Made by a program: the position numbers and the translations under genes. From assembly GCF_964355755.1 (NCBI RefSeq), contig NC_092678.1, forward strand, positions 2,806,422 through 2,870,421: DNA of 64,000 nt. Reading direction: 5' to 3'. Position 1 is the first letter of the stretch; each line of letters starts with the position of its first letter. The notes beneath the pieces were generated by a model. That model had not been told where the DNA came from. It searched no databases and worked only from the letters and a program-made list of their open reading frames with translations. Shown in pieces: positions 9,201 through 59,600 of the stretch. The stretch is from Antedon mediterranea (taxonomy: Eukaryota > Animalia > Echinodermata).

Positions 9201-12200
9201 TTTTTACATGTACCAGGGATTTTTCTGCAGTATTCTTTAGGTTTTGGAGAAATTATTAATTAGTAATTATTAATACTTACCAGGTTTGATATTTGAGATG
9301 CATTTTTCTATTGTACCAATCGCAATGATCGATCCTTTCCTTTTTCCATTCTTATAGAACTGGTACCCTATGATCTCAATAGATTGATGGCAAATCCCTG
9401 GCTTCCAAACCAGTACAACTTCTTGAACACCAAGACTTTTTACAACCATAGCAGGTGCCTGGGCACGACCTCCTGTTAAGCACTGATGGATCTCTGACAC
9501 TGTCTGGAGAGTTCCTCTTTTAGGGTCTGAGTGAGAGAAGCTGGCAGTAACAAAAGCTCTGGAAAACAAATGGATTAAAACATGATTTGTTTTTAGGTGA
9601 GGTGTATAAGCGCATCATTTGTAGGCTTGTTCGTGGCCTTTTCATTAATTGTATGGGCAGTAGGGCTAGTATGTGTCATGGTTTATAGCAGCCTTTTAAT
9701 CAATTGCGTAGACAGTACCTGTATACACTGTTGTCCATCAGTTGTTTAATAGTGATAGCATTGGCTAAGTCTGCATTCCAACTGTGTCTAATACATTCAT
9801 TGCCAGCATCATCCATCACTTCACATCTACAATATAAACAAATTCTGTTACTTTTACTCTCTCTTATTCAGATCTTTAACAAAGCAAGCCTGTATGAGAA
9901 AAAGATAATAGTGGAAAAAAGAACACAAAGAGTTATACCTGCCATGGCTTTGGATGTCACCAGAGAACGTCATTCCTTCAACATGAACCATGTAGTGTGA
10001 GAATGTGTATGTGGCACTGATCACTCTTGCACACTGCCATTGTAAGCTAATACTGCTGTCTTTTGCATTAGTTCTGACAACTACCACTGGGGTTGGAAGT
10101 ACCACATTGGCCTAAAGTAACAAGAGAGATGGTCAAAGGTTATACTTACTTTATCATTGATTGAAATTTGTTATTATATCAATCTCAAATATTTGGTGCA
10201 ACTTGTAGATGTGAAGGGGTAAAGGAAATGTTGACTTAAAATAGGAAAAACCATACAAGAAAATAACATAAAAAAATGCATGCCAATATACAAGAGACGA
10301 ATTCAAGTACCTGTTGTTTAAATTCATGCGTACTGTATAGGTAGAATTGTTGTATCTGTTTCCATTTCTAAATTTACAAACTGTATTACTAGTATTAAAT
10401 TTCTAATTTTGATCATCTACCTTATTTTCAGGCTCACTACTTTCACCATTTAAAATCAAATTGGCTTTATCATCACTTTCCGTCACCATACTTTCACTGT
10501 TGACATCAGAAGATGAACTTAAAGAAGAGTCACTGCTATCTGTATCGCTATCAGAGGAGGAAGTTGTAATCTCAGTGTGGTCTGCATTTTCTTTAAGGGT
10601 GTTGCCACTTATTTCAACGTTACTCACACCTTCATCTCTGACACAATGTTGTCTGTCTGAAGTATCTCTAGGTTTGTTTTCAAAATCTTTATCCATCTCC
10701 TCTCCTCTGAACATTTCATTATCATTCATTTCTTTACTTAAACTTAAAATATTGTCTTCTTTTTTCCCATTTGATAATTCATTATTATTTAAAGCATTCC
10801 CATTGTTTGTTTCATTTATTTCATCTTTGGTATTACTATTATTATCTTTAATTTCCCTGTTGTCTTTTTTTACCAGTACATTACAGGTTTGTTCATGCAA
10901 CATAGGGTCATGCAAAGGAATCTGGGAGAGGTCATGCACAGGGTGAGATAACTCATTATTTATATCTTGCTCATGTTGAACCAATTTTGAAACCAGTATG
11001 GTTTTTGAGTTTTCAATTTGATTGGATTGCTGAGTTGGATTGGCATCTGTCAAATCTGATGATCTGTCATCGTTTACATCATTTTCAACATTATCTCTTT
11101 CAATGAGAACATCTCCATTATCCTCATCATCTTCAGGTTTCTCTAACATGCTAAATGTGTCCCTATATTCATACTGACTTTCATAACATGCAGAATTAAT
11201 GTTTACCTCTTCACGCTTTACATCAAATGTCAGATTTCTGTAAAAGAAACATGAATAATCTTGATGAAAAAACAAATATTCATAGAATGAGTATTGTATC
11301 ATGTAATATAAATGAATATTCATATTTATATGATATTCATAGTATATATCACAGACATGTTTATTTATAATGATTGCAATTTTTATTCTGTTTTATATAA
11401 ATTCTATGTTACCGGGTTGTTAAATGTTTATTCTTGTTAATGTTATTTTGCCACCAGCACTATCAGGAGAGTCTTTTATAGCGATATTTTTTGCTTTTTG
11501 ACAATCCGTCAGGATAATGTTCTGCGCTTTTTCTCTGCTTGTTGTTGTTCTATGTAATTTATGCTTTTTGTATTGTTTTTGTTTTTTTTTTACTGGATAA
11601 TAAATGAATATGAATATGAATATGAGTTTATGCAAATTAAGTTGTACTTGCCTTCCTTGGGCGTCGTCAAATAATGGCTTTCCAAAATTATCCAATAATT
11701 TGGAATGTTCCATTGATGTATCAACTGTCGGAAGGAGCTCCTTACTTAAACCTAGTAGAAAAAGTTGTAATAGATTACTAAAGAATTATTCTAAACAAAT
11801 GTAACAAAAATGTATAATATATACATTATGTATTAACCATAGAATATTATTTATAAGATATTCTAATTTGATTCATAGATACTCTACTATGCTTGCTTAA
11901 TAAGAATATGTTTATTATACTTACAATGTTTAATATACTTACAATGAGTTTTCTGTTTTGCTTCAGCAACTTGTATGAAAGGGAGCTCTACCAGGGTATT
12001 TCCAGCTGGAGGTACGAAAGCGCTTGTGTCCAGGGGTAAGGTCAATTCTAATGGGTTTGATTTCAATGCTTCGCTTGACCCTAAAATAAAATATTTCATA
12101 CTACAATGCAAAAAATTAAAAATACAGTATTTTATACTATAATGCAAAATTATAAAACACAATTGTGTCCCAAAGATATTCAATTCAATGATGGACATTG

Positions 12201-36359: not shown

Positions 36360-38584
36360 ATGGCAAATTCAGAAAAAAGAACAACTACAATAGGTGGAGG
36401 GTTTGGCAGTACAAGTGCACCGAAAAAGGGGACGTATTGGAAGAAAGGAGCTGATAAAGTTCCAGGAAGGTAAGCCCACCCCCACCCCCTAACAGAAGAT
36501 TTTTTCGAAGGGATCGAGAGGCCTTATACCCCGATAAAGCTCAGCGGTTGACCGCCATGACGTCCTTAGGCCTAGCTTAGAAAATTTATTTCCCTCAATA
36601 AGTAATTCAAATGAATACAAATGAATAAATATATTTTCATGGCTGTGTGTAGGCCTACAGTAGGCCGAATTAAGATAAGTGTCAACTTTCGTTACTGTTT
36701 GTTTTGATGAAATAAATTAAAATTAAATAATTTTAGACCCTACCTAAAAAATAAAAGCTGTGGCTAAATAAAGATACGGTACTGTATCCTAACTTCCGTT
36801 AGGTACAGCAGGTAGGGTAAAATTGCATTGCGTCATAATCAGCCAATGGGTTGCTGGGACGTATAAGGACTTTGGATTTTTTTTCTTATTGCGTCTGTAG
36901 AGAATGCCTATCGGCAGCGCCAGGCTGCATGAATGTGTGCTCTGATTCTGTGACTCAGCCCCGGCACTAGACCTAGCAAAGTTTAACAACGGGTGACAAC
37001 GTCGATGCTGTATTAATAGAGCAAGTTTATGTGGTTGATGGACGTTACATAAAGCATTTAAAACATGCACTCAATCTCAAATATTATTCCATTACACAAC
37101 ATACAGTAGTAGTAGTATTATAGTCCGATATCTTGATACAGTAGCCAAATTAAAAGTAAAGGAATTATAATTCAATGTTGGAAATGAGATTTTGATTCCA
37201 AATGAAGTATTTAGGCCTATAATTGTTATTAATTTTGTTTACAGACACATAAACAACAAGCAAATGCGGACAATATAGGGGCCCTCAAATATTATGATTT
37301 AGACAGTAGTCCCAGGGCTTAGTCACAGACACATGCAGCTGGCCCCAGCCTGGTACTGCTTTCCCTACACAAACAAACTCATATAATGAGGCTATAGGTT
37401 ATAGTACGTAGTAGGCCTCTTTTGAAACGGTTTTGTGTATTCTAGAATTAAAATCAACTTGTTTTGGCTTTTTAATAATAACAGACGTAGGCTACATTTA
37501 GTTTTTGTCACACACGACGGTGATAGTAGCAATAAATGAAGCATAAAGAAATTTTAAGCGGTTGATCACTGTTTTCGCAATATGAAAACAAATCCAAAGT
37601 CCTTGCACAATGACGTTACACATGTACCACGTCCCCACTGGATGATTATGACGTAATGCAATTTTACCGTACCTTTAGCAAACGGAAGTTAAGATACGGT
37701 ACCGTATCTTTAGCCATGGCGAAAAGTAAACAGATTAATCAGTACTACTACTAGGCTAGTCAAGGCATAACTTTACTAGTAAGGCAGGGTAGCTATGAGA
37801 GGAGAATTCCCTTTCCGTTGGGGGAAACATCAAAAAAATTATGACAGCAGATGGTTGTACAATGTCTTAAATATTGTAAATTTGGTTGTGTGTACAGTAA
37901 GCCTTTTTGTTATATTTTAATGCAGAAAACAAGACACATAAATAAAAATTCAGTTTCTTTGTAATCCGGGAGAAAAAGCTTGTTAGGCCGGGAGACGAGT
38001 TTAGAATACACGGGTGTCCCGGCCAAAACAGGAGTGTTGGCGTCTATATAAATTAAATATATTTGCATGGAAAGGTCAAGACAGCTGTTTTAAATTGGGA
38101 TTTAAATACAGAATTTCTGTGCTGCTTATAAAATTAGTACTGCTAGGAGAAGTAAACAATAAGTTGTACTCTTATAGAATAATGTTATGAGTTTATTTAA
38201 CCCCTGAAAAAAAAAATGTAAAAGATAATTTTTTGTAAAACGTTGACCAATTTGATGCAATTATTTTCCTCAATATTTTTGTAATGCTAACATTTTAATT
38301 AATTTAAGTACATTTCACAGAAAGATTTAATGCATACAACAAAATGCTTATATACACAGTTTTGATTGCTTTTTAAGATTCAGAAATCCCATGCAAACGC
38401 TATACTACTGTCATTGTTTGTCATCTCGCAAAGATAAAACTTCTTTTTAAAATTGTGTAGCCCATATAGCTCTTTAATAATTTGAAAGCTTTTCCGTGCA
38501 CTGCTGTAATGTTTTAATATTCTGATGTACTGTAAATAGTAGAAATACTACAATTACATTATAGAAAGTAGGAAGTATTATGTT

Positions 38585-41600: not shown

Positions 41601-44600
41601 AAATATTATAATCTGAACCATTGTAGAGTTTAACCAATCACTGACGTTGAGCACTTCACTTAAAATGATTACTAATATTGAGCATTGGGAATAGATTGCC
41701 ATAGCTTTACTTTTCTAATTCCATTTTAATTCAATCTAAAGACTGAAATTCAAAAATAATCCAGATTGAAATGCTATTCTTGAAGCCAATTTTGTAATTA
41801 TTTTAGGTGGAGATGAACACCGTTTTAACCTAACCAGTCAGCCAAACATTTAATAAAATCTTGCATGTGTATCGAACTCTTCTTTCCAACGATATTAATA
41901 GATAAAATTTTTTGTTTTATTTATTTTTATGAGAATTGATGCGGTTTTTAGATGCTTTTTATCTGTAAATATGTTATCACTGATAATAAAATTACTAATA
42001 AAATACCTACCCAACAGAAATAGAGATTCTTGATAGTACTAACATTTGACACTCGCTCCCTAGACTTATCTAACTACACCCTTGTATATCCTATATCATT
42101 AGTTGGTATAATTACACTATCAAAATGTGAGAAAAAAATGTGATGTGCCCATATATGAACATGATGATGTCATATCACTACTATTTAGGAATATCACAAC
42201 TATATTTGGGCACATCCTACTATTTTTTGTCAAACTAGTTTGATAGTGTAGACAGGACTTAAAGAATACGTTTTATCTCTCCTGTAATGTTGCACTGTTG
42301 ATTGTGTGTCCTCACATGATCACCAAATAATAAGGTAATTGTCACATTAAATTTTTCACTTGGAAAGCTAACAAATTTTATATATTTTTTATTATTTCAG
42401 AGGAATTAAGAAAACTCAGCTGGAAAGGAATACCAACGCATGTGAGACCAATGACTTGGAAAATTTTACTTGTAAATATAATTTCTTTGCATACAATAAA
42501 AATGATGATACAGTCAACTCTCCTAAAAAACGGGAAAATCTCCCAAAAATTTATTAAAAATATATTTGAAATACCAGAATTTTTTGAAACCAGACATATT
42601 AGGTGTCCAGTATTGGGAGAGTTGACTAGAAACCAACTAGATCACTAAAATATTGTAAGAACAATCCAAAAAGATAAAAAGGAAAATTATTGAGTATAAA
42701 CAAACATCTGTAAAATTTGCTATTATTAAGTATTCTTAAACTCTGTCTACACTATCAAACTTTATGTGACAAAAAATGTGATGTGTCCATATATGGACAT
42801 GACGATGTCATATCACTACCATATTTGAGCACATCACTACCATATTTGGGCACATCACACTTTTTTTGTCAAAATAATTTGATAGTGTAGACAGAGCTTA
42901 ACAAACAGTATGTCAAAGTTTGTCTGATTCCTTTGGGATTTGGTAATCTCATTTCCAGATGACGTTGATGTTACATTGTCTGCTTGTTTTTAAAATATTG
43001 GTATTCAAACTTTTGAATTTATGAGGCATGTATTGTAAGAGGAGATGTACTGTATTAGAAAAGGGCAATTAGTACATACATGTATCCTCAATTTACTCAT
43101 TAAAATCATCACTAACAAATAACAATTTATATTTGCATAAAGTTTCTTAAGACCTTTTAAAGAGAATTAAAATATTACACTTGTAGGGATATAGTTTAAG
43201 AATTAGTTGGGTGGGCGTCATCAATTTAAGTAGTTTTTTGGATGGGTGGTATCATAAAATAACCTCTAGGCTGGGGAAATAATTTTTCCCCATCATAATT
43301 TCATCCTTCATTTATTAGTTTTTTTTCTTCTAATTGTTCTTTACTTCTTTAGGGATACCTACCAGCAAATATCGATAGACGAGATATTACTTTAGACAGA
43401 AAACGAGAAGAATATTTTAATTTTATCGAGCAGTACTATCACACAAAAACAGAACCTCACAATGAAGAAATGTTTCGACAGGTAATTACAGTAAGATGCA
43501 AATTATCATTTTAGTATCGGTTCCTCTTGTTGAATGTATTTTTAATTTATTAAATATTAATAAATAAAGTTTATTTATTTTAAAAAAAGGGCACTTTAAG
43601 GAAGTGCGAACCTCCGCCTAGGCATATGAATATTAAGTGACGTACATACAGCTATAAAACCATCTTTTTAAATCTTATGAAAATCGGGCAAAAACTTTTT
43701 GATCCATTTGATTGATTTGTAATCCTGCTAACAAAAACACACTCGACTACATAACCTCTCGTCATTCTGGCGGAGGTAATTAAAAAGTAGCAAGATTAAA
43801 GATGTATTGTCCCCCTGAAAAAATAAATTTTTAGAATTTGTTTGTTGAATATGCCATTTTAATGTCACATAATAGTTATTCACTTTGACAAAAAATTGGA
43901 TCGAAAAAAAAAAAATTACTTACCTGAAAAAACTGTAATTTAGAGCAAAAAATAGTCAAATTGGCTGCCAGCCAATGGGTTTTGATTGAATTTAACTGTT
44001 TATTTTGTCATTTTATAAGTGAAAACATTATTTTTTCGGGATTTTTTTCTACGGAAGTAATTAACTTGGTTAAAATTACAAAATGGCATATTCGAGGTTT
44101 GATTTTAATAATCTTCATTTTTCATGTTTTTGGGGGACAATACATCTTTAAACAATATTTATTATGATTGTTTTTATAATACAGTAGAACCCCTATTTAA
44201 AGGATCATCGTTGGGTCCCAACAAAGTGTTCTCCAAAAAGGAGTGTCCTCTTAAAAGGAGTGTCCTCTTAAAAGGAGTGTCCTCTTAAAAGGAGTGTCCT
44301 ATGAATAGGGAAGCATGTCCTAAAGGAATTTTACTGTTTAAATTCACTTTTTCACTAAATCATTTTTATCTTGTAGTATACTTCTCGCTGAAACAAAGTT
44401 AAATGTAAATGTTAGGCTTAGACAAATACAAATATGTTGTTTGATTATTTTTCTAAATTATTTGTGATGTTGGCCTCCGTGCAGATACACATTGATATTC
44501 CAAGGACCAATCCCCTCATTCCCTTGTTCCAGCAAGAGTTAGTTCAGCAGGTAAGTGTCTGGATAGAGTCTATCATCACAGGGTTGATTAAACTGTTTCT

Positions 44601-47600
44601 CCACGACTAAGCTGCTATTTTAAATGCTGAATATAAGTATTTTTATTTAGCTTACCTAAATTTTGCAATGATTTTTTTTATACCAATAAAATATTTGTAT
44701 ATATTTTGCACAAAAAATCTAAATTTTATATTTTTAAAATGTGCTTTCTTTTTCAATGTTACTTTTTCATTCTTTACTTTCTAAACTTTTTATTCTTTCT
44801 TGCTTCTTAGTAAATTACCTTTAGGATCCATTCTCCTTGGTATGTTTTCAAAATACTGTAATTTTGTAATTTTAACCAACTTTTAATAACTACATAACCT
44901 TTTCTCATTTTTCACAGACTTAAGTCAACATTTCTTTTGTAAAATATTAAATTATAAATCTGCCCTCAAATTTCAGATATCTAAGCCTTCATGCCAAATA
45001 ATCCTTGGACTTAAATGTGACCAGGTTTCATGTTTTCATTCATTCATTCAATCTTTTATTTTTAAATCTCTGGTCCATAGAAAATAAAATTGCATATCAA
45101 ATTTTTTTTTTAATCAACTGTACCGACTAATTACTACAAGACGACGCATTCTCATCTCAGGATGGCATTCTACCTGAAGGGAATTTTTAACTTTAAGATG
45201 TCTATAATCAGTGAGATTAAAACATTTTCTCTGTCTACATACACACCAGGCATTATATTGATTTTCATAAAAAGAAGGAATTCTACATTCTGTATATTAC
45301 AGTATTTTCAATTTTGGTTAATTTTATAAAAAACCTGTAAACTTCCACCTATTATTGCAGTATAATGCCCTAAAGTGTCAGTTTTTCATTTCTTTTTTAT
45401 ATTTCTTATTTCTATTAATTTTTTTTTGCTTAGATGTTGTACAGTATTTTATAAAATGTCTTTACTTTAGCAATTTTGTCGTGGAGATATGGTAAATCTA
45501 TACCCTAGATTTTTCAAATATATTATATATTCTACAAATAGAGCATTTTCTTTTATTTTTGTTTGGTGGCGCTGTTTTCACAGATTCAGAAAGATATACC
45601 CCGAATGCCGCATCCGCTGTTACGTGAAGTAATTGTTCAAGAGGTAATTTATCCGTCCTGTTGTGGTACCGTCTATGAGAAGGAGGAGAAAGGGTTGCTT
45701 AGCATCCATCTTCAAATCAATTCATATCTGTTAAAATCATTTTTGTAATAATATTTTGTTGAGTTTATTTTTTGTTTGTAATTTAGTCCCTCCTATTGTA
45801 AAAACAATTAATATAGACATAATAAGAAATTGCTAAATTTATTATTACAGTAAACAATATTGCCAAAATAAGCCAAAAACAAAAAGGAATAAATTTGTAA
45901 AGTAAATAGCTATTAAAAAATAAATAAAAATAAAATTGGTAAAATAAATTCCCACAAACTTATTTCTTTATATCTAGTTTCAAAATAGTTGATATTTTTC
46001 TATATCCAAATTAATTTTACTAAATTGATATAAGATATTTAATATGGAAAAAAGTTATTGATAAAAGAAAGCTAAATTGATGGACTTAGATTGTCGTGCT
46101 CGTAATATTGTCTGTGACTGTTGTCATTTATGCTCCATCATCTTATCATCACTACATTTTGTGTTAATTTTCTTTCATTATTTACCACACACATTTTTAT
46201 GAATTCACATTGTTACTGCCCTTAATTAACCCTTACTCCTCCTTATCCTACACAGGAGCCTAAATGTACCCCACTTTGCATGCATGCTTGCTTTTTATAT
46301 ATATTTTTGGTGTTTTTTTTTGTTTCACTAAATTTGTTATGTTATGTTTGTGTTTTAACAAAAAAAAAACACAATTAACCTGAAATATTGGACACAAAGA
46401 TGCAGAATGTGGTAAAGTTTACGACAGCAAATTTTTGTTCAAATTTGTGGTTGAGGGTTCTGTTTACATCATCTTTTATTACATTTCTTAGTTCTTCATT
46501 TTTAGGTTATTCTTAATTCATATTATTTTGTATACATGATATGACACTTTAGTATCTTGGTTAAATATAATATGTTACACTCTCGCAATTAAAGTTCATA
46601 AAATGTACTACAGTCAACTCTCCCAATACTGGATTCTCGAAAAACCAGAGACTCCCAAAACCAGACCCTCTTCCAAAACCAGACTTTTCTTGAGTTCCAA
46701 CAGTTCCTAAATTTTTTTTAACCATAAAACCAGACATATTAGACCAGCCCAATGGTGTATTGGGAAAGTTAACTATGACTATACGTACACTGTTGAGAAT
46801 GTTTTTCCTGTTTCAATTATTTGTGAATACAACTTTAAACTGTTACAAATATTATTTCAATACTTTTCTTAGATATTTGAAAGGATATTATACATTTGGG
46901 CAATCCGTCATCCAGCAAGTGGTTACGTCCAAGGAATCAATGATCTAGTCACACCATTTTTTGTAGTGTTTTTATCTGAATATTTAGGTAAGTAATTTCC
47001 ATAAAAGTCCCTTTGTGCCGAGCTCAACCAAACAGCAAACTACTACTAAATGTTCACGTTCTTGATGCTCTTGCTTTCGCCAACAAATCACAGTCCTCTA
47101 CTAAATGTTGACGTTCTTGATGCTCTTGTTTTCGCCAACAAATCACAGTCCTCTACTAAATGTTGACGTTCTTGATGCTCTTGTTTTCGTCAACAAATCA
47201 CAGTCCTCTACTAAATGTTCACGTTCTTGATGCTCTTGTTTTCACCAACAAATCACAGTCCTCTACTAAATGTTCACGTTCTTGATGCTCTTGTTTTCAC
47301 CAACAAATCGCAGTCCTCTACTAAATGTTCACGTTCTTGATGCTCTTGTTTTCACCAACAAATCACAGTCCTCTACTAAATGTTCACGTTCTTGATGCTC
47401 TTGTTTTCACCAACAAATCGCAGTCCTCTACTAAATGTTCACGTTCTTGATGCTCTTGTTTTCACCAACAAATCGCAGTCCTCTACTAAATGTTCACGTT
47501 CTTGATGCTCTTGTTTTCGCCAACAAATCGCAGTCCTCTACTAAATGTTCACGTTCTTGATGCTCTTGTTTTCGCCAACAAATCACAGTCCTCTACTAAA

Positions 47601-50600
47601 TGTTCACGTTCTTGATGCTCTTGTTTTCGCCAACAAATCACAGTCCTCTACTAAATGTTCACGTTCTTCATGCTCTTGTTTTCGCCAACAAATCGCAGTC
47701 CTCTACTAAATGTTCACGTTCTTGATGCTCTTGTTTTCGCCAACAAATCACAGTCCTCTACTAAATGTTCACGTTCTTGATGCTCTTGTTTTCACCAACA
47801 AATCGCAGTCCTCTACTAAATGTTCACGTTCTTGATACTCTTGTTTTCGCCAACAAATCACAGTCCTCTACTAAATGTTCACGTTCTTGATGCTCTTGTT
47901 TTCGCCAACAAATCACAGTCCTCTACTAAATGTTCACGTTCTTGATACTCTTGTTTTCGCCAACAAATCACAGTCCTCTACTAAATGTTCACGTTCTTGA
48001 TGCTCTTGTTTTCACCAACAAATCACAGTCCTCTACTAAATGTTCACGTTCTTGATGCTCTTGTTTTCACCAACAAATCACAGTCCTCTACTAAATGTTC
48101 ACGTTCTTGATGCTCTTGTTTTCGTCAACAAATCACAGTCCTCTACTAAATGTTCACGTTCTTGATACTCTTGTTTTCGCCAACAAATCACAGTCCTCTA
48201 CTAAATGTTCACGTTCTTGATGCTCTTGTTTTCACCAACAAATCACAGTCCTCTACTAAATGTTCACGTTCTTGATGCTCTTGTTTTCGCCAACAAATCA
48301 CAGTCCTCTACTAAATGTTCACGTTCTTCATGCTCTTGTTTTCGCCAACAAATCGCAGTCCTCTACTAAATGTTCACGTTCTTGATACTCTTGCTTTCGC
48401 CAACAAATCACAGTCCTCTACTAAATGTTCACGTTCTTGATGCTCTTGTTTTCACCAACAAATCGCAGTGCTCCACTAAATGTTCACGTTCTTGATGCTC
48501 TTGTTTTCACCAACAAATCGCAGTCCTCTACTAAATGTTCACGTTCTTGATGCTCTTGCTTTCGCCAACAAATCACAGTCCTCTACTAAATGTTCACGTT
48601 TTTGATGCTCTTGTTTTCACCAACAAATCGCAGTCCTCTACTAAATGTTCATGTTCTTGATGCTCTTGTTTTCACCAACAAATCACAGTCCTCTACTAAA
48701 TGTTCACGTTCTTGATGCTCTTGTTTTTGCCAACAAATCACAGTCCTCTATTAAATGTTCACGTTCTTGATGCTCTTGTTTTCGCCAACAAATCACAGTC
48801 CTCTACTAAATGTTCATGTTCTTGATGCTCTTGTTTTCACCAACAAATCGCAGTCCTCTACTAAATGTTGACGTTCTTGATGCTCTTGTTTTCACCAACA
48901 AATCACAGTCCTCTACTAAATGTTAACGTTCTTCATGCTCTTGTTTTCACCAACAAATCGCAGTCCTCTACTAAATGTTCACGTTCTTGATGCTCTTGTT
49001 TTCGCCAACAAATCACAGTCCTCTATTAAATGTTCACGTTCTTGATGCTCTTGTTTTCACCAACAAATCGCAGTCCTCTACTAAATGTTCATGTTCTTGA
49101 TACTCTTGTTTTCACCAACAAATCGCAGTCCTCTACTAAATGTTCACGTTCTTGATGCTCTTGTTTTCACCAACAAATCACAGTCCTCTACTAAATGTTC
49201 ACGTTCTTGATGCTCTTGTTTTCACCAACAAATCACAGTCCTCTACTAAATGTTGACGTTCTTGATGCTCTTGTTTTCACCAACAAATCACAGTCCTCTA
49301 CTAAATGTTCATGTTCTTGATACTCTTGTTTTCACCAACAAATCACAGTCCTCTACTAAATGTTCACGTTCTTGATGCTCTTGTTTTCACCAACAAATCG
49401 CAGTCCTCTACTAAATGTTCATGTTCTTGATGCTCTTGTTTTCGCCAACAAATCACAGTCCTCTACTAAATGTTCATGTTCTTGATGCTCTTCTTTTCAC
49501 CAACAAATCACAGTCCTCTACTAAATGTTCATGTTCTTGATGCTCTTGTTTTCGCCAACAAATCACAGTCCTCTACTAAATGTTCACATTCTTGATGCTC
49601 TTGTTTTCACCAACAAATCACAGTCCTCTACTAAATGTTCACGTTCTTGATGCTCTTGTTTTTGCCAACAAATCACAGTCCTCTATTAAATGTTCACGTT
49701 CTTGATGCTCTTGTTTTCGCCAACAAATCACAGTCCTCTACTAAATGTTCATGTTCTTGATGCTCTTGTTTTCACCAACAAATCGCAGTCCTCTACTAAA
49801 TGTTGACGTTCTTGATGCTCTTGTTTTCACCAACAAATCGCAGTCCTCTACTAAATGTTCACGTTCTTGATGCTCTTGTTTTCGCCAACAAATCACAGTC
49901 CTCTACTAAATGTTCATGTTCTTGATGCTCTTCTTTTCACCAACAAATCACAGTCCTCTATTAAATGTTCACGTTCTTGATGCTCTTGTTTTCGCCAACA
50001 AATCACAGTCCTCTACTAAATGTTCATGTTCTTGATGCTCTTGTTTTCGTCAACAAATCGCAGTTCTCTACTAAAGGTTCACGTTGTTGATGCTCTTGTT
50101 TTCGCCAGTAAAACGCAGTCCTCTACTAAATGTTCATGTTCTTCATGCTCTTGTTTTCACCAACAAATCGCAGTTCTCTACTAAATGTTCACATTCTTGA
50201 TGCTCTTCTTTTCGCCAACAAATCGCAGTCCTCTACTAAATGTTCATGTTCTTGATGCTTTTGTTTTCACCAACAAATCGCAGTTCTCTACTAAATGTTC
50301 ACATTCTTGATGCTCTTCTTTTCGCCAACAAATCGCAGTCCTCTACTAAATGTTCATGTTCTTGATGCTCTTGTTTTCACCAACAAATCGCAGTCCTCTA
50401 CTAAATGTTCATGTTCTTGATGCTCTTGTTTTCACCAACAAATCGCAGTTCTCTACTAAATGTTCACATTCTTGATGCTCTTCTTTTCGCCAACAAATCG
50501 CAGTCCTCTACTAAATGTTCATGTTCTTGATGCTCTTGCTTTCGCCAAAAAATCGCAGTCCTCTACTAAATGTTCACGTTCTCGATGCTCTTGTTTTCAC

Positions 50601-53600
50601 CAACAAATCGCAGTTCTCTACTAAATGTTCACGTTCTTGATGCTCTTGTTTTCACCAACAAATCGCAGTCCTCTACTAAATGTTCACGTTCTTCATGCTC
50701 TTGTTTTCACCAACAAATCACAGTCCTCTACTAAATGTTCATGTTCTTGATGCTCTTGTTTTCACCAACAAATCACAGTTCTCTACTAAATGTTCATGTT
50801 CTTGATAATCTTGCTTTCGCCAACAAATCGCAGTCCTCTACTAAATGTTCATGTTCTTGATGCTCTTGTTTTCGCCAACAAATCACAGTTCTCTACTAAA
50901 TGTTCATGTTCTTGATGCTCTTGTTTTCACCAACAAATCACAGTCCTCTACTAAATGTTCATGTTCTTGATGCTCTTGTTTTCACCAACAAATCACAGTT
51001 CTCTACTAAATGTTCATGTTCTTGATAATCTTGCTTTCGCCAACAAATCGCAGTCCTCTACTAAATGTTCATGTTCTTGATGCTCTTGTTTTCACCAACA
51101 AATCACAGTCCTCTATTAAATGTTCATGTTCTTGATGCTCTTGTTTTCGCCAACAAATCGCAGTCCTCTACTAAATGTTCACGTTCTTGATGCTCTTGTT
51201 TTCGCCAGTAAATCGCAGTTCTCTACTAAATGTTCACGTTCTTGATGCTCTTGTTTTCGCCAGTAAATCGCAGTCCTCTACTAAATGTTAACGTTCTTCA
51301 TGCTCTTGTTTTCACCAACAAATCGCAGTCCTCTACTAAATGTTCACGTTCTTGATGCTCTTGTTTTCACCAACAAATCACAGTCCTCTACTAAATGTTC
51401 ACGTTCTTGATGCTCTTGTTTTCACCTACAAATCGCAGTCCTCTACTAAATGTTCATGTTCTTGATGCTCTTGTTTTCACCAACAAATCACAGTCCTCTA
51501 CTAAATGTTCACGTTCTTGATGCTCTTGTTTTCGCCAACAAATCACAGTCCTCTACTAAATGTTCACGTTCTTGATGCTCTTGTTTTCACCAACAAATCG
51601 CAGTCCTCTACTAAATGTTCACGTTCTTGATGCTCTTGTTTTCACCAACAAATCGCAGTTCCCTACTAAATGTTCACGTTCTTGATGCTCTTGTTTTCGC
51701 CAGTAAATCGCAGTCCTCTACTAAATGTTCATGTTCTTCATTCTCTTGTTTTCACCAACAAATCGCAGTCCTCTACTAAATGTTCACGTTCTTGATGCTC
51801 TTGTTTTCACCAACAAATCGCAGTCCTCTACTAAATGTTCATGTTCTTGATGCTCTTGTTTTCGTCAACAAATCGCAGTTCTCTACTAAATGTTCACGTT
51901 CTTGATGCTCTTGTTTTCGCCAGTAAAACGCAGTCCTCTACTAAATGTTCATGTTCTTCATGCTCTTGTTTTCACCAACAAATCGCAGTTCTCTACTAAA
52001 TGTTCACATTCTTGATGCTCTTCTTTTCGCCAACAAATCGCAGTCCTCTACTAAATGTTCATGTTCTTGATGCTCTTGTTTTCACCAACAAATCACAGTC
52101 CTCTACTAAATGTTCATGTTCTTGATGCTCTTGTTTTCACCAACAAATCACAGTCCTCTACTAAATGTTCACGTTCTTGATGCTCTTGTTTTCACCAACA
52201 AATCACAGTCCTCTACTAAATGTTCACGTTCTTGATGCTCTTGTTTTCACCAACAAATCACAGTCCTCTACTAAATGTTCATGTTCTTGATGCTCTTGTT
52301 TTCACCAACAAATCACAGTCCTCTACTAAATGTTCACGTTCTTGATGCTCTTGTTTTCACCAACAAATCACAGTCCTCTACTAAATGTTCATGTTCTTGA
52401 TGCTCTTGTTTTCACCAACAAATCACAGTCCTCTACTAAATGTTCACGTTCTTGATGCTCTTGTTTTCGTCAACAAATCACAGTCCTCTACTAAATGTTG
52501 ACGTTCTTGATGCTCTTGTTTTCACCAACAAATCACAGTCCTCTACTAAATGTTCACGTTCTTGATGCTCTTCTTTTCACCAACAAATCACAGTCCTCTA
52601 CTAAATGTTCACGTTCTTGATGCTCTTCTTTTCACCAACAAATCACAGTCCTCTACTAAATGTTGACGTTCTTGATGCTCTTGTTTTCACCAACAAATCA
52701 CAGTCCTCTACTAAATGTTCACGTTCTTGATGCTCTTGTTTTCACCAACAAATCACAGTCCTCTACTAAATGTTCATGTTCTTGATGCTCTTGTTTTCAC
52801 CAACAAATCACAGTCCTCTACTAAATGTTCACGTTCTTGATGCTCTTGTTTTCGTCAACAAATCACAGTTCTCTACTAAATGTTCATGTTCTTCATGCTC
52901 TTGTTTTCACCAACAAATCGCAGTCCTCTACTAAATGTTCATGTTCTTCATGCTCTTGTTTTCACCAACAAATCGCAGTCCTCTACTAAATGTTCACGTT
53001 CTTGATGCTCTTGTTTTCACCAACAAATCGCAGTCCTCTACTAAATGTTCATGTTCTTCATGCTCTTGTTTTCACCAACAAATCGCAGTTCTCTACTAAA
53101 TGTTCACGTTCTTGATGCTCTTGTTTTCGTCAACAAATCGCAGTTCTCTACTAAATGTTCACGTTGTTGATGCTCTTGTTTTCGTCAACAAATCGCAGTT
53201 CTCTACTAAATGTTCATGTTCTTGATGCTCTTGTTTTCACCAACAAATCGCAGTCCTCTACTAAATGTTCACGTTCTTGATGCTCTTGTTTTCACCAACA
53301 AATCGCAGTCCTCTACTAAATGTTCACGTTCTTGATGCTCTTCTTTTCGCCAACAAATCACAGTCCTCTACTAAATGTTCATGTTCTTGATGCTCTTGTT
53401 TTCACCAACAAATCGCAGTTCTCTACTAAATGTTCATGTTCTTGATGCTCTTGTTTTCGCCAACAAATCGCAGTCCTCTACTAAATGTTCACGTTCTTGA
53501 TGCTCTTCTTTTCGCCAACAAATCACAGTCCTCTACTAAATGTTCATGTTCTTGATGCTCTTGTTTTCACCAACAAATCGCAGTTCTCTACTAAATGTTC

Positions 53601-56600
53601 ACGTTGTTGATGCTCTTGTTTTCGCCAGTAAATCGTAGTCCTCTACTAAATGTTAACGTTCTTCATGCTCTTGTTTTCACCAACAAATCGCAGCCCTCTA
53701 CTAAATGTTCACGTTCTTGATGCTCTTGTTTTCGTCAACAAATCGCAGTCCTCTACTAAATGTTCATGTTCTTGATGCTCTTGTTTTCGTCAACAAATCG
53801 CAGTTCTCTACTAAATGTTCACGTTCTTGATGCTCTTGTTTTCGCCAGTAAAACGCAGTCCTCTACTAAATGTTCATGTTCTTCATGCTCTTGTTTTCAC
53901 CAACAAATCGCAGTTCTCTACTAAATGTTCATGTTCTTGATGCTCTTGTTTTCGTCAACAAATCGCAGTTCTCTACTAAATGTTCACGTTCTTGATGCTC
54001 TTGTTTTCGCCAGTAAAACGCAGTCCTCTACTAAATGTTCATGTTCTTCATGCTCTTGTTTTCACCAACAAATCGCAGTTCTCTACTAAATGTTCACATT
54101 CTTGATGCTCTTCTTTTCGCCAACAAATCGCAGTCCTCTACTAAATGTTCATGTTCTTGATGCTCTTGTTTTCACCAACAAATCGCAGTTCTCTACTAAA
54201 TGTTCATGTTCTTGATGCTCTTGTTTTCGCCAACAAATCGCAGTTCTCTACTAAATGTTCACATTCTTGATGCTCTTCTTTTCGCCAACAAATCGCAGTC
54301 CTCTACTAAATGTTCACGTTCTTGATGCTCTTGTTTTCACCAACAAATCGCAGTTCTCTACTAAATGTTCATGTTCTTCATGCTCTTGTTTTCACCAACA
54401 AATCGCAGTTCTCTACTAAATGTTCACATTCTTGATGCTCTTCTTTTCGCCAACAAATCGCAGTCCTCTACTAAATGTTCATGTTCTTCATTCTCTTGTT
54501 TTCACCAACAAATCACAGTCCTCTACTAAATGTTCACGTTCTTCATTCTCTTGTTTTCACCAACAAATCACAGTTCTCTACTAAATGTTCACGTTCTTCA
54601 TGCTCTTGTTTTCGCCAACAAATCGCAGTCCTCTACTAAATGTTCACGTTCTTGATGCTCTTGTTTTCGCCAACAAATCACAGTCCTCTACTAAATGTTG
54701 ATGTTCTTGATGCTCTTCTTTTCGCCAACAAATCACAGTCCTCTACTAAATGTTCACGTTCTTGATGCTCTTGTTTTCACCAACAAATCACAGTCCTCTA
54801 CTAAATGTTCACGTTCTTGATGCTCTTGTTTTCACCAACAAATCACAGTCCTCTACTAAATGTTCACGTTCTTGATGCTCTTGTTTTCACCAACAAATCA
54901 CAGTCCTCTATTAAATGTTCACGTTCTTGATGCTCTTGTTTTTGTCAACAAATCACAGTCCTCTACTAAATGTTCATGTTCTTGATGCTCTTGTTTTCAC
55001 CAACAAATCACAGTCCTCTACTAAATGTTCACGTTCTTGATGCTCTTCTTTTCACCAACAAATCACAGTCCTCTACTAAATGTTCACGTTCTTGATGCTC
55101 TTGTTTTCGCCAACAAATCACAGTCCTCTACTAAATGTTGATGTTCTTGATGCTCTTGTTTTCACCAACAAATCACAGTCCTCTACTAAATGTTCACGTT
55201 CTTGATGCTCTTCTTTTCGCCAACAAATCGCAGTCCTCTACTAAATGTTCATGTTCTTGATGCTCTTGTTTTCACCAACAAATCACAGTCCTCTACTAAA
55301 TGTTCACGTTCTTGATGCTCTTCTTTTCACCAACAAATCACAGTCCTCTACTAAATGTTCACGTTCTTGATGCTCTTGTTTTCACCAACAAATCACAGTC
55401 CTCTACTAAATGTTCACGTTCTTGATGCTCTTGTTTTCACCAACAAATCGCAGTCCTCTACTAAATGTTCATGTTCTTGATGCTCTTCTTTTCGCCAACA
55501 AATCACAGTCCTCTACTAAATGTTCACGTTCTTGATGCTCTTGTTTTCACCAACAAATCACAGTCCTCTACTAAATGTTCACGTTCTTGATGCTCTTGTT
55601 TTCACCAACAAATCACAGTCCTCTACTAAATGTTCATGTTCTTGATGCTCTTGTTTTCACCAACAAATCACAGTCCTCTACTAAATGTTCACGTTCTTGA
55701 TGCTCTTCTTTTCGCCAACAAATCGCAGTCCTCTACTAAATGTTCATGTTCTTGATGCTCTTGTTTTCACCAACAAATCACAGTCCTCTACTAAATGTTC
55801 ACGTTCTTGATGCTCTTCTTTTCACCAACAAATCACAGTCCTCTACTAAATGTTCACGTTCTTGATGCTCTTGTTTTCACCAACAAATCACAGTCCTCTA
55901 CTAAATGTTCACGTTCTTGATGCTCTTGTTTTCACCAACAAATCGCAGTCCTCTACTAAATGTTCATGTTCTTGATGCTCTTGTTTTCGCCAACAAATCA
56001 CAGTCCTCTACTAAATGTTCATGTTCTTGATGCTCTTGTTTTCACCAACAAATCACAGTCCTCTACTAAATGTTCACGTTCTTGATGCTCTTCTTTTCAC
56101 CAACAAATCACAGTCCTCTACTAAATGTTCACATTCTTGATACTCTTGCTTTCGTCAACAAATCGCAATCTACTAAATGTTCACCAACAAAACCATCTTG
56201 TGTGAGCTTCATTCTAATTTGTATAATTTTTTTCAGGTGATAATGTAAAGCGGGTTGAAGATTACGACGTAAAGCAACTTAACGGTGACAAACTTAGAGT
56301 AATAGAAGCTGACACATTTTGGTGTATGAGCAAACTACTTGATGGCATTCAAGACAACTACACATTTGCTCAACCTGGCATTCAAACCAAAGTGAAACAG
56401 CTGGAGGAGTTAATTAAAAGAATAAATGGTAATTATACTGTGTATGAGTGTTTGCAGTACTTGTACTCTTAATTGGAGTGTGAGTGTTTGCAGTAGCTGT
56501 ACTCCTAATTGGCGTGTGGGTGTTTGCAGTAGCTGTACTCATGCTTGGCGTGTGGGTGTTTGTAGTAGCTGTATACTCCTAATTGGTGTGTGAGTGTTGG

Positions 56601-59600
56601 TAGTAGCTGTACTCTTACTTGGCATGTGAGTGTTTGCAGTAGCTGTACTCTTACTTGGCGTGTGAGTGTTTGCAGTAGCTGTACTCTTAATTGGCGTGTG
56701 AGTATTTGTAGTAGCTGTACTCTTACTTGGCGTGTGAGTGTTTGCAGTAGCTGTACTCTTACTTGGTGTGTGAGTGTTTGCAGTAGCTGTACTCTTACTT
56801 GGTGTGTGAGTGTTTGCAGTAGCTGTACTCTTAATTGGCGTGTGAGTGTTTGCAGTAGCTGTACTCTTACTTGGTGTGTGAGTGTTTGCAGTAGCTGTAC
56901 TCTTAATTGGCGTGTGAGTGTTGCAGTAGCTGTATTCATAATTGGCGTGTGAGTGTTTGCAGTAGCTGTACTCTTACTTAGTGTGTGAGTGTTTGCAGTA
57001 GCTGTACTCTTAATTGGCGTTTGAGTGTTTGCAGTAGCTGTACTCTTAATTAGCGTGTGAGTGTTTGCAGTAGCTGTACTCTTAATTGGCGTGTGAGTGT
57101 TTGCAGTAGCTGTACTCTTAATTAGCGTGTGAGTGTTTGCAGTAGCTGTACTCTTACTTAGTGTGTGAGTGTTTGCAGTAGCTGTACTCTTAATTGGCGT
57201 TTGAGTGTTTGCAGTAGCTGTACTCTTAATTAGCGTGTGAGTGTTTGCAGTAGCTGTACTCTTAATTGGCGTGTGAGTGTTTGCAGTAGCTGTACTCTTA
57301 ATTAGCGTGTGAGTGTTTGCAGTAGCTGTACTCATGCTTGGCGTGTGAGTGTTTGCAGTAGCTGTACTCTTAATTGGCGTGTGATTGTTTGCAGTAGCTG
57401 TACTCTTAATTGGCGTGTGAGTGTTTGCAGTAGCTGTACTCTTAATTGGCGTGTGAGTGTTTGCAGTAGCTGTACTCTTAATTGGCGTGTGAGTGTTTGC
57501 AGTAGCTGTACTCTTAATTAGCGTGTGAGTGTTTGCAGTAGCTGTACTCATGCTTGGCGTGTGAGTGTTTGCAGTAGCTGTATTCATAATTGGCGTGTGA
57601 TTGTTTGCAGTAGCTGTATTCATAATTGGCGTGTGAGTGTTTGCAGTAGCTGTACTCTTAATTGGCGTGTGAGTGTTTGCAGTAGCTGTACTCTTACTTG
57701 GTGTGTGAGTGTTTGCAGTAGCTGTACTCTTAATTGGCGTGTGAGTGTTGCAGTAGCTGTATTCATAATTGGCGTGTGAGTGTTTGCAGTAGCTGTACTC
57801 TTAATTGGCGTGTGAGTGTTTGCAGTAGCTGTATTCATAATTGGCGTGTGATTGTTTGCAGTAGCTGTACTCTTAATTGGCGTGTGAGTGTTGCAGTAGC
57901 TGTACTCTTAATTGGCGTGTGGGTGTTTGCAGTAGCTGTATTCATAATTGGCGTGTGGGTGTTTGCAGTAGCTGTATTCATAATTGGCGTGTGATTGTTT
58001 GCAGTAGCTGTACTCTTAATTGGCGTGTGAGTGTTTGCAGTAGCTGTACTCTTAATTGGCGTGTGAGTGTTTGCAGTAGCTGTACTCTTAATTGGCGTGT
58101 GGGTGTTTGCAGTAGCTGTACTCTTAATTGGCGTGTGATTGTTTGCAGTAGCTGTACTCTTAATTGGCGTGTGAGTGTTTGCAGTAGCTGTACTCTTAAT
58201 TGGCGTGTGAGTGTTTGCAGTAGCTGTACTCTTAATTGGCGTGTGATTGTTTGCAGTAGCTGTACTCTTAATTGGCGTGTGAGTGTTGCAGTAGCTGTAC
58301 TCTTACTTGGCGTGTGAGTGTTTGCAGTAGCTGTACTCTTACTTGGCGTGTGAGTGTTTGCAGTAGCTGTACTCTTAGTTGGCGTGTGGGTGTTTGTAGT
58401 AGCTGTACTCTTACTTGGCGTGTGAGTATTTGTAGTAGCTGTACTCTTACTTGGCATGTGAGTGTTTGCAGTAGCTGTACTCTTACTTGGTGTGTGAGTG
58501 TTTGCAGTAGCTGTACTCTTAATTGGCCTGTGAGTATTTGTAGTAGCTGTACTCTTACTTGGTGTGTGAGTGTTTGCAGTAGCTGTACTCTTAATTGGCG
58601 TGTGAGTGTTAGCAGTAGCTGTACTCTTAATTGGCGTGTGAGTGTTTGCAGTAGCTGTACTCTTAATTGGCGTGTGAGTGTTGCAGTAGCTGTATTCATA
58701 ATTGGCGTGTGAGTGTTTGCAGTAGCTGTACTCTGAATTGGCGTGTGAGTGTTTGCAGTAGCTGTACTCTTAATTGGCGTGTGAGTGTTGCAGTAGCTGT
58801 ATTCATAATTGGCGTGTGAGTGTTTGCAGTAGCTGTACTCTGAATTGGCGTGTGAGTGTTTGCAGTAGCTGTACTCTTAATTGGCGTGTGAGTGTTTGCA
58901 GTAGCTGTACTCTTAATTGGCGTGTGAGTGTTTGCAGTAGCTGTACTCTTAATTGGCGTGTGAGTGTTTGCAGTAGCTGTACTCCTAATTGGCGTGTGAG
59001 TGTTTGCAGTAGCTGTACTCATGCTTGGCGTATGAGTGTTTGCAGTAACTGTACTCATGCTTGGCGTGTGGGTGTTTTTTTCAAAATTTCTGCTTTTAAT
59101 TGGCGTGTAAGTGATTGCAGTAGCTGTACTCTTAATTGGCATGTGAGTGTTTGCAGTAGCTGTACTCTTAATTGGCATGTGAGTGTTTGCAGTAGCTGTA
59201 CTCTTACTTGGCATGTGAGTGTTTGCAGTAGCTGTACTCTTACTTGGCATGTGAGTGTTTGCAGTAGCTGTGCTCTTACTTGGCATGTGAGTGTTTGCAG
59301 TAGCTGTACTCTTACTTGGCATGTGAGTGTTTGCAGTAGCTGTACTCTTACTTGGCATGTGAGTGTTTGCAGTAGCTGTGCTCTTACTTGGCATGTGAGT
59401 GTTTGCAGTAGCTGTACTCTTACTTGGCATGTGAGTGTTTGCAGTAGCTGTACTCTTACTTGGCATGTGAGTGTTTGCAGTAGCTGTGCTCTTTCCTGAC
59501 GTGTGTTTGCAGTAGCTGTATCCTTACCTTGCCTTTGTTTTTTTACCAACCATATAGTCAGTTTACTGATGATGTGATTATATAGCATTTGTAATCTGAA

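Follow-up and report, generated by a model that had tools for sequence, protein, structure and literature searches.

Tandem duplicated exon substitutions, in which mutually exclusive homologous exons replace one another, are a known class of event, and 236 of them have been counted in human (PMC8373072, PMC9741552). Separation of splice isoforms after gene duplication has also been described, in all three of its fates (PMC4494069; PMC9741552), with CACNA1F/CACNA1S, PGM1/PGM5, and the FYN family among the cases presented (PMC9741552). We analyzed a 64,000-nucleotide (nt) stretch of the genome of the crinoid Antedon mediterranea (NC_092678.1, positions 2,806,422 to 2,870,421; hereafter the window) that contains TBC1D22, the gene for a Gyp1-type Rab GTPase-activating protein (Rab-GAP). 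The exon encoding its catalytic arginine finger is present in two copies, which the annotation uses singly, as splicing probably does as well. The explanation that best accounts for the whole, and that we consider probable, is a tandem exon pair, used one at a time, that is an old animal feature and tunes Rab binding.

Like the catalogued substitutions, the TBC1D22 exons are homologous, are alike in length and phase, appear to be used one at a time, and keep the key residues. They differ in that TBC1D22 is not among the catalogued human events: the human tandem-exon event table has no TBC match, with the controls FYN and ATE1 found (PMC8373072 supplement), and TBC1D22 is missing from the supplements of a human survey of mutually exclusive exons (MXEs) in which TBC1D19 was found (PMC5740500). 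This absence from the human catalogues would follow if no human TBC1D22 gene retained the pair. The supplements of PMC7954323 and PMC9741552 also gave no match, which is uninformative without a positive control. No published description of the TBC1D22 pair was found, and subscription papers or fish and invertebrate MXE tables may list it; the crinoid isoforms are already in public annotation.

The vertebrate paralogues TBC1D22A and TBC1D22B (22A and 22B) resemble isoform separation where, as in human structures and the sampled tetrapods, they appear to hold different members of the pair. The fish genes are comparable to PGM1/PGM5, where one paralogue keeps both exons, and the tetrapod genes fit full separation. 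TBC1D22 differs from the described cases in that living lineages show both stages and that its exon encodes a catalytic finger; the exon pair may be older than the gene duplication. The case also offers splice-isoform separation in mid-course, with both exons kept in fish 22A, which human-centred catalogues miss. With the Gyp1/TBC1D22 family of TBC Rab-GAPs (2g77, 2qfz, 6d0s), the crinoid protein shares the dual-finger motifs IxxDxxR and YxQ, in which the arginine and glutamine fingers sit (PMC13090580, PMC3676764, PMC3674391). Copy 1 of the exon retains the 35-residue spacing of R343 and Q378 in Gyp1; the spacing is 33 with copy 2 and 34 with the vertebrate variant.

Two arginine-finger exons in Antedon TBC1D22

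Searches by tblastn with the RefSeq Antedon proteins P0001, P0121, and P0122 placed the gene, from start to stop codon, at 36360–60866 on the plus strand, with the exon cores of all three proteins unchanged in the window DNA. Between a constitutive upstream exon (43353–43481; 129 nt, end phase 0, 100% identical to the RefSeq protein of Antedon) and a constitutive downstream exon with the YxQ glutamine finger (46873–46987) lie copy 1 (44485–44550, 66 nt) and copy 2 (45584–45643, 60 nt), all on the plus strand. Both copies are bounded by AG and GT, are phase 0/0, and encode an intact IxxDxxR motif; their donors are gtaagt (copy 1) and gtaatt (copy 2), and 1033 nt of intron separate them. Either copy keeps the reading frame between the flanking exons. 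An earlier note, made from the letters alone, had claimed these exons, their translations, and the restored frame, and each of these points was confirmed in the sequence.

Copy 1 encodes 22 amino acids (aa) of the canonical type, since it matches residues 109–130 of human TBC1D22B in 6d0s (E 1e-7) and yeast Gyp1 (E 0.003). Copy 2 encodes a variant 20-aa type (xKDxPRM) and, searched alone against the PDB, gave no match at E ≤ 10; a protein search with it, limited to a region, yielded one candidate under settings too strict for the result to count as evidence. The copies are homologous and align to a single position of the TBC domain. An exon profile run over 43300–47000 returned exactly two matches, of 50.8 and 20.8 bits (copy 2 was part of the training set), and no relic third copy in that interval. 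The human peptides given in the earlier note agree with the PDB chains (6d0s, 2qfz), except that the human 22A exon at this position is 21 aa long rather than the 20 aa implied there.

A second alternative affects the upstream exon. A tandem donor extends the upstream exon by 9 nt (43482–43490, plus strand) and inserts three residues just ahead of the finger motif; it is annotated in both crinoids, as RefSeq isoform X1 of Antedon and of Anneissia. Oyster and scallop models also have 6–8 additional residues at this junction.

Use of the two exons in crinoids

In both Antedon and Anneissia japonica, RefSeq isoforms X2 (copy 1) and X3 (copy 2) differ at this exon only, and none of the six crinoid isoforms holds both copies. 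Copy 2 is identical at 19 of 20 residues between the two species, against 92% for the TBC core, and is by this measure conserved between the crinoid genera to the same degree as the core.

Sequencing run X1, which is RNA-like by the program's guess with no RNA on record, was examined as contigs, and these can neither rank isoforms nor exclude double inclusion or double skipping. Its two long contigs depart from the genome exactly at exon edges. An 821-nt contig spans exactly the upstream exon plus two letters beyond the donor; copies 1 and 2 have this many letters in common, as do copy 2 and a skip, where an intron branch would give none. Ahead of copy 2, an intronic contig breaks off at 45609, where a 43481>45584 junction is computed to merge; the alternatives give 45610 (copy 1 to copy 2) and 45613 (alternative donor). 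Both exons are covered, the introns directly after them are almost uncovered, and residual depths balance on both sides. As indirect evidence, the contig ends fit splicing into copy 2; a junction into copy 1 is inferred. Runs X2–X4, from one sample, have even intron cover.

Mutually exclusive use of the duplicated catalytic exon, as the earlier note had proposed, is supported by the paired RefSeq isoforms of two crinoids, by same-species isoform pairs in other animals, and by the contig ends of run X1.

Distribution across animals

Three sources supplied the proteins: the best 120 of 5470 from a full-length search, the best 150 from a search of representatives, and cluster look-ups. Thirteen same-species isoform pairs were hand-picked for comparison, and 12 are identical outside the exon: eight from ray-finned fishes (22A), one each from Magallana and Octopus, and two from crinoids. 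The remaining pair, from the annelid Owenia, has both exon types and is identical upstream only. Among 80 metagenome loci kept from 117, two contain both exons in DNA, one of the fish 22A type (L013, 3323–3948) and one from an invertebrate (L029, 298–855) nearest to unnamed and lophotrochozoan rows. In both, the variant exon precedes the canonical exon, the opposite of the order in the window.

Many invertebrate loci in the metagenome set (within L024–L028, L055–L063, and L069–L079) do not have one of the introns beside the exon, a loss that would rule out a splice switch there. Two TBC1D22-like proteins of the tapeworm Echinococcus (P0145 and P0279) have a 19-aa xKDxxRM segment that resembles the invertebrate variant exon and may represent an isoform or a paralogue. 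Methionine after the arginine was considered as a marker of the variant and rejected, as canonical exons of protostomes and Actinia carry it too.

Exon types in vertebrate TBC1D22A and TBC1D22B

Human structures show each paralogue with a different exon type (2qfz for 22A, 6d0s for 22B). In a TBC1D22B-rich set of 118 rows, 95 have the canonical exon and none the variant; in the other 23 the exon is absent or skipped. Fish 22A rows (n = 62, from the best 120 of 5470) comprise 38 variant and 24 canonical exons, and all 40 tetrapod 22A rows are variant. The tetrapod rows cover 19 named species (mammals, crocodilians, and frogs) plus unnamed rows, without birds, squamates, turtles, or salamanders. 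Tetrapod loss of the canonical exon rests on annotation, and the isoforms of fish pairs fell in separate clusters, which makes absence from a tetrapod cluster weak evidence and counts against the reading given next.

The best reading of these counts is a staged loss, with 22B having lost the variant, 22A keeping both exons in ray-finned fishes, and tetrapod 22A retaining the variant only. We regard the 22A part of this sequence, retention in ray-finned fishes followed by loss of the canonical exon on the tetrapod line, as quite probable. The human end state resembles a partition, in which each human gene appears to have kept one version.

Origin of the exon pair and alternative explanations

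An exon tree was built from 22 hand-aligned columns with long branches and a simpler model, and topologies were compared by the P value of the approximately unbiased test (p-AU) and the difference in log-likelihood (dlnL). With so few columns these tests are weak, and the tree used for p-AU left out the Owenia variant and 16 other rows. Holding all variants together cost 0.00 lnL. On the whole we lean toward a single ancient origin, and the pair is probably an old feature of animals. We give slightly better than even chances to a pair that would be older than the A/B gene duplication and already present in early bilaterians; it would since have been lost many times and have changed its exon order in crinoids.

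Several results weigh against this history. The test of the all-variant topology returned a nominal p-AU of 0.016, which is meaningless at a dlnL of 0.00 and yet is not support, and only 0–2% of bootstrap trees joined all variants. A vertebrate variant grouped with the gar 22A canonical exon alone was not rejected (p-AU 0.106). Eleven metagenome loci spanning both flanking introns hold one exon and no variant, and no variant was seen in the sampled proteins of sea urchin, sea star, brittle star, and sea cucumber, or of hemichordates, cnidarians, and chelicerates. The named rows sampled include no lamprey, hagfish, or amphioxus sequence.

The main alternative is recurrent duplication, two or three times, in crinoids and/or lophotrochozoans and in vertebrate 22A after the A/B split. 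What separates the human genes would in that case trace not to an ancestral pair but to a duplicate specific to 22A, the original of which was lost later. In favor of this alternative, convergence among tandem exon duplications is described as common (PMC9741552), and the distribution is patchy. It also fits the canonical-variant order of Antedon, the reverse of that in both metagenome loci and in the Owenia model P0440, with no relic to explain the reversal; the differing variant lengths (20, 21, and 22 aa); and the isoleucine at position 3 of vertebrate variants, where invertebrate variants have lysine. An exclusive clade of crinoid copy 2 and the vertebrate variants was rejected (p-AU 0.029), and copy 2 instead groups with mollusc xKDxPRM exons (80/76). 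The earlier note had copy 2 mirror the 22A exon, and the comparison speaks against such a specific tie: copy 2 is identical to the deer 22A exon at 10 of 21 positions and to a fish 22B exon at 10 of 22. Against repeated origins, a duplication restricted to crinoids was rejected (dlnL 12.1, p-AU 0.017). A clade of the vertebrate variant with both vertebrate canonical exons was rejected as well (dlnL 8.8, p-AU 0.008). The crinoid and mollusc variants cluster and have xKDxxRM in common, and the crinoid, mollusc, Owenia, and L029 variants, all with the lysine at position 3, group together (89/76 in the first tree). The variant-before-canonical order is common to the fish-type locus, L029, and Owenia. 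On balance, we judge recurrent duplication rather unlikely.

A clean partition, in which 22A took copy 2 and 22B took copy 1 at the vertebrate gene duplication, is barely credible. It agrees with the human structures and the sampled tetrapods (40/40), and the link that the earlier note drew to the human A/B difference is real in outline. The split at the duplication itself does not hold: ray-finned fish 22A has both exons in one gene (eight isoform pairs and the L013 contig), a contradiction unless those genes regained the canonical exon. It is very improbable that copy 2 is dead or used at noise level, or that we are dealing with a pair of ordinary cassette exons, sometimes included or skipped together. 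In favor of these readings, each exon length is divisible by three; gene models exist with both exons (P0440 in Owenia) or neither (P0444 and P0043); and no junction row or count was seen directly among the rows listed. The Owenia model and the missing junction rows also weigh against exclusive use. Conservation of copy 2 in Anneissia, its annotation in both crinoids, and the contig end at the copy 2 junction argue the other way.

Predicted effect on the catalytic site

The aspartate, arginine, and glutamine of the two finger motifs (D250, R253, and Q286) are invariant in 72 aligned rows. In the predicted structure of the copy-2 isoform, confidence is high over residues 241–270 (predicted local distance difference test score 87–96), and the model matches 2qfz with a root-mean-square deviation of 1.2–1.5; such models lean on solved relatives. 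The modeled TBC fold, with IxxDxxR and YxQ present, places the protein in the Gyp1/TBC1D22 Rab-GAPs. In this model the exon runs from the end of helix 238–253 through a loop that includes a short helix into the beginning of helix 262–278. The swap is thus modeled to keep the arginine and glutamine, remodel the loop between them, and alter the surface beside the finger.

Both isoforms, keeping all three residues, are very probably active GAPs. A differing Rab preference, arising from the loop and short helix after the arginine, is plausible at a little short of an even chance. The swap is predicted to tune Rab binding and not to switch catalysis off. Determinants of Rab selectivity in TBC GAPs are poorly mapped. 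The fish, mollusc, and crinoid pairs are natural swaps of 20–22 residues at the arginine finger in otherwise identical proteins, which makes a direct test of selectivity possible.

In one study, RAB1B-GTPgS pulled down human TBC1D22B and negligible TBC1D22A, and silencing of 22B only sped up reporter transport from the endoplasmic reticulum to the Golgi; the structural cause of these differences in binding and trafficking is not known (PMC12631847). This published difference makes a role of the exon in specificity testable, and the exon difference may explain it. The cause of the RAB1B result may equally lie outside the exon, because human 22A and 22B differ elsewhere too; the TBC cores of deer 22A and of lungfish and fish proteins labelled 22B are 71–76% alike, which counts against the assignment. 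Our most far-reaching proposal, which we consider doubtful, is that a splice switch would have set Rab preference since early bilaterians, that vertebrates split it stepwise into two genes, that the exon would explain the human RAB1B difference, and that fish tbc1d22a, molluscs, and crinoids may still toggle between the two activities by tissue.

Candidate mechanism of mutual exclusion

Three simple routes to exclusion were considered and set aside. Exclusion by frame and nonsense-mediated decay was rejected, as 66 plus 60 nt stays in frame. A distant branch point is an unlikely cause of steric exclusion, since the intron measures 1033 nt and AGs lie 41, 43, and 76 nt upstream of that acceptor of copy 2. 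Mixed U2/U12 sites were rejected, both donors being ordinary (GTAAGT and GTAATT). Because including both copies would not shift the frame, and a steric block was not seen, exclusion would need an active mechanism. Competing intronic RNA pairings are a tentative candidate for it, with chances well below even.

Docking-site/selector pairing is said to occur in the MXE clusters of ATE1 and Dscam. In docking/selector models, selectors compete for one downstream docking site (PMC6071210). The locus is similar in having short, similar candidate elements after each exon that are predicted to be complementary to one downstream site, a candidate docking site in the downstream intron (46216–46257). A candidate selector after copy 2 (45668–45705) is predicted to pair with it at −33.3 kcal/mol (0/300 shuffles as good; rank 11 of 239 tiles); fixed probes gave 3/60 and 6/60. 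A weak candidate selector after copy 1 (44580–44591) would form a 12-bp helix with the same site and is not significant alone (40/300 shuffles as good). The locus differs from described clusters in that only one of the two predicted selector helices beats shuffles. A further predicted helix joins an intronic arm after copy 1 (44597–44625) to a partner about 100 nt before copy 2 (45460–45488), at −25.6 kcal/mol (0/300 shuffles; rank 4 of 239 tiles). All of these elements are on the plus strand. Ranks of 4 and 11 of 239 tiles indicate that helices this strong are no rarity in these introns. The pairings were chosen after the repeat list had been seen, and no comparable layout was found in L013 or L029, both of which tell against this mechanism. 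One run has a variant letter (46223) near the end of the 12-bp helix. Control of exclusion by the predicted intronic pairings is a lead.

Other features of the locus

The other coding exons of TBC1D22, located by tblastn with approximate edges, lie on the plus strand near 36360, 40257, 40779, 42400, 56236, 59623, 60156, and 60732. Upstream of copy 1, a 17-nt tandem repeat is present in 4.5 copies (44225–44300), and an element resembling a miniature inverted-repeat transposable element occupies 43796–44151, with 32-nt terminal inverted repeats (84%) and a summed contig depth of >27,000 in all four runs. Two long minisatellites lie in TBC1D22 introns, at 47043–56184 (55-nt unit, 166 copies) and 56445–59493 (36-nt unit, 85 copies). 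On the minus strand at 10427–11257, stop-free acidic stretches with weak, low-complexity tblastn matches are likely exons of a neighboring gene.

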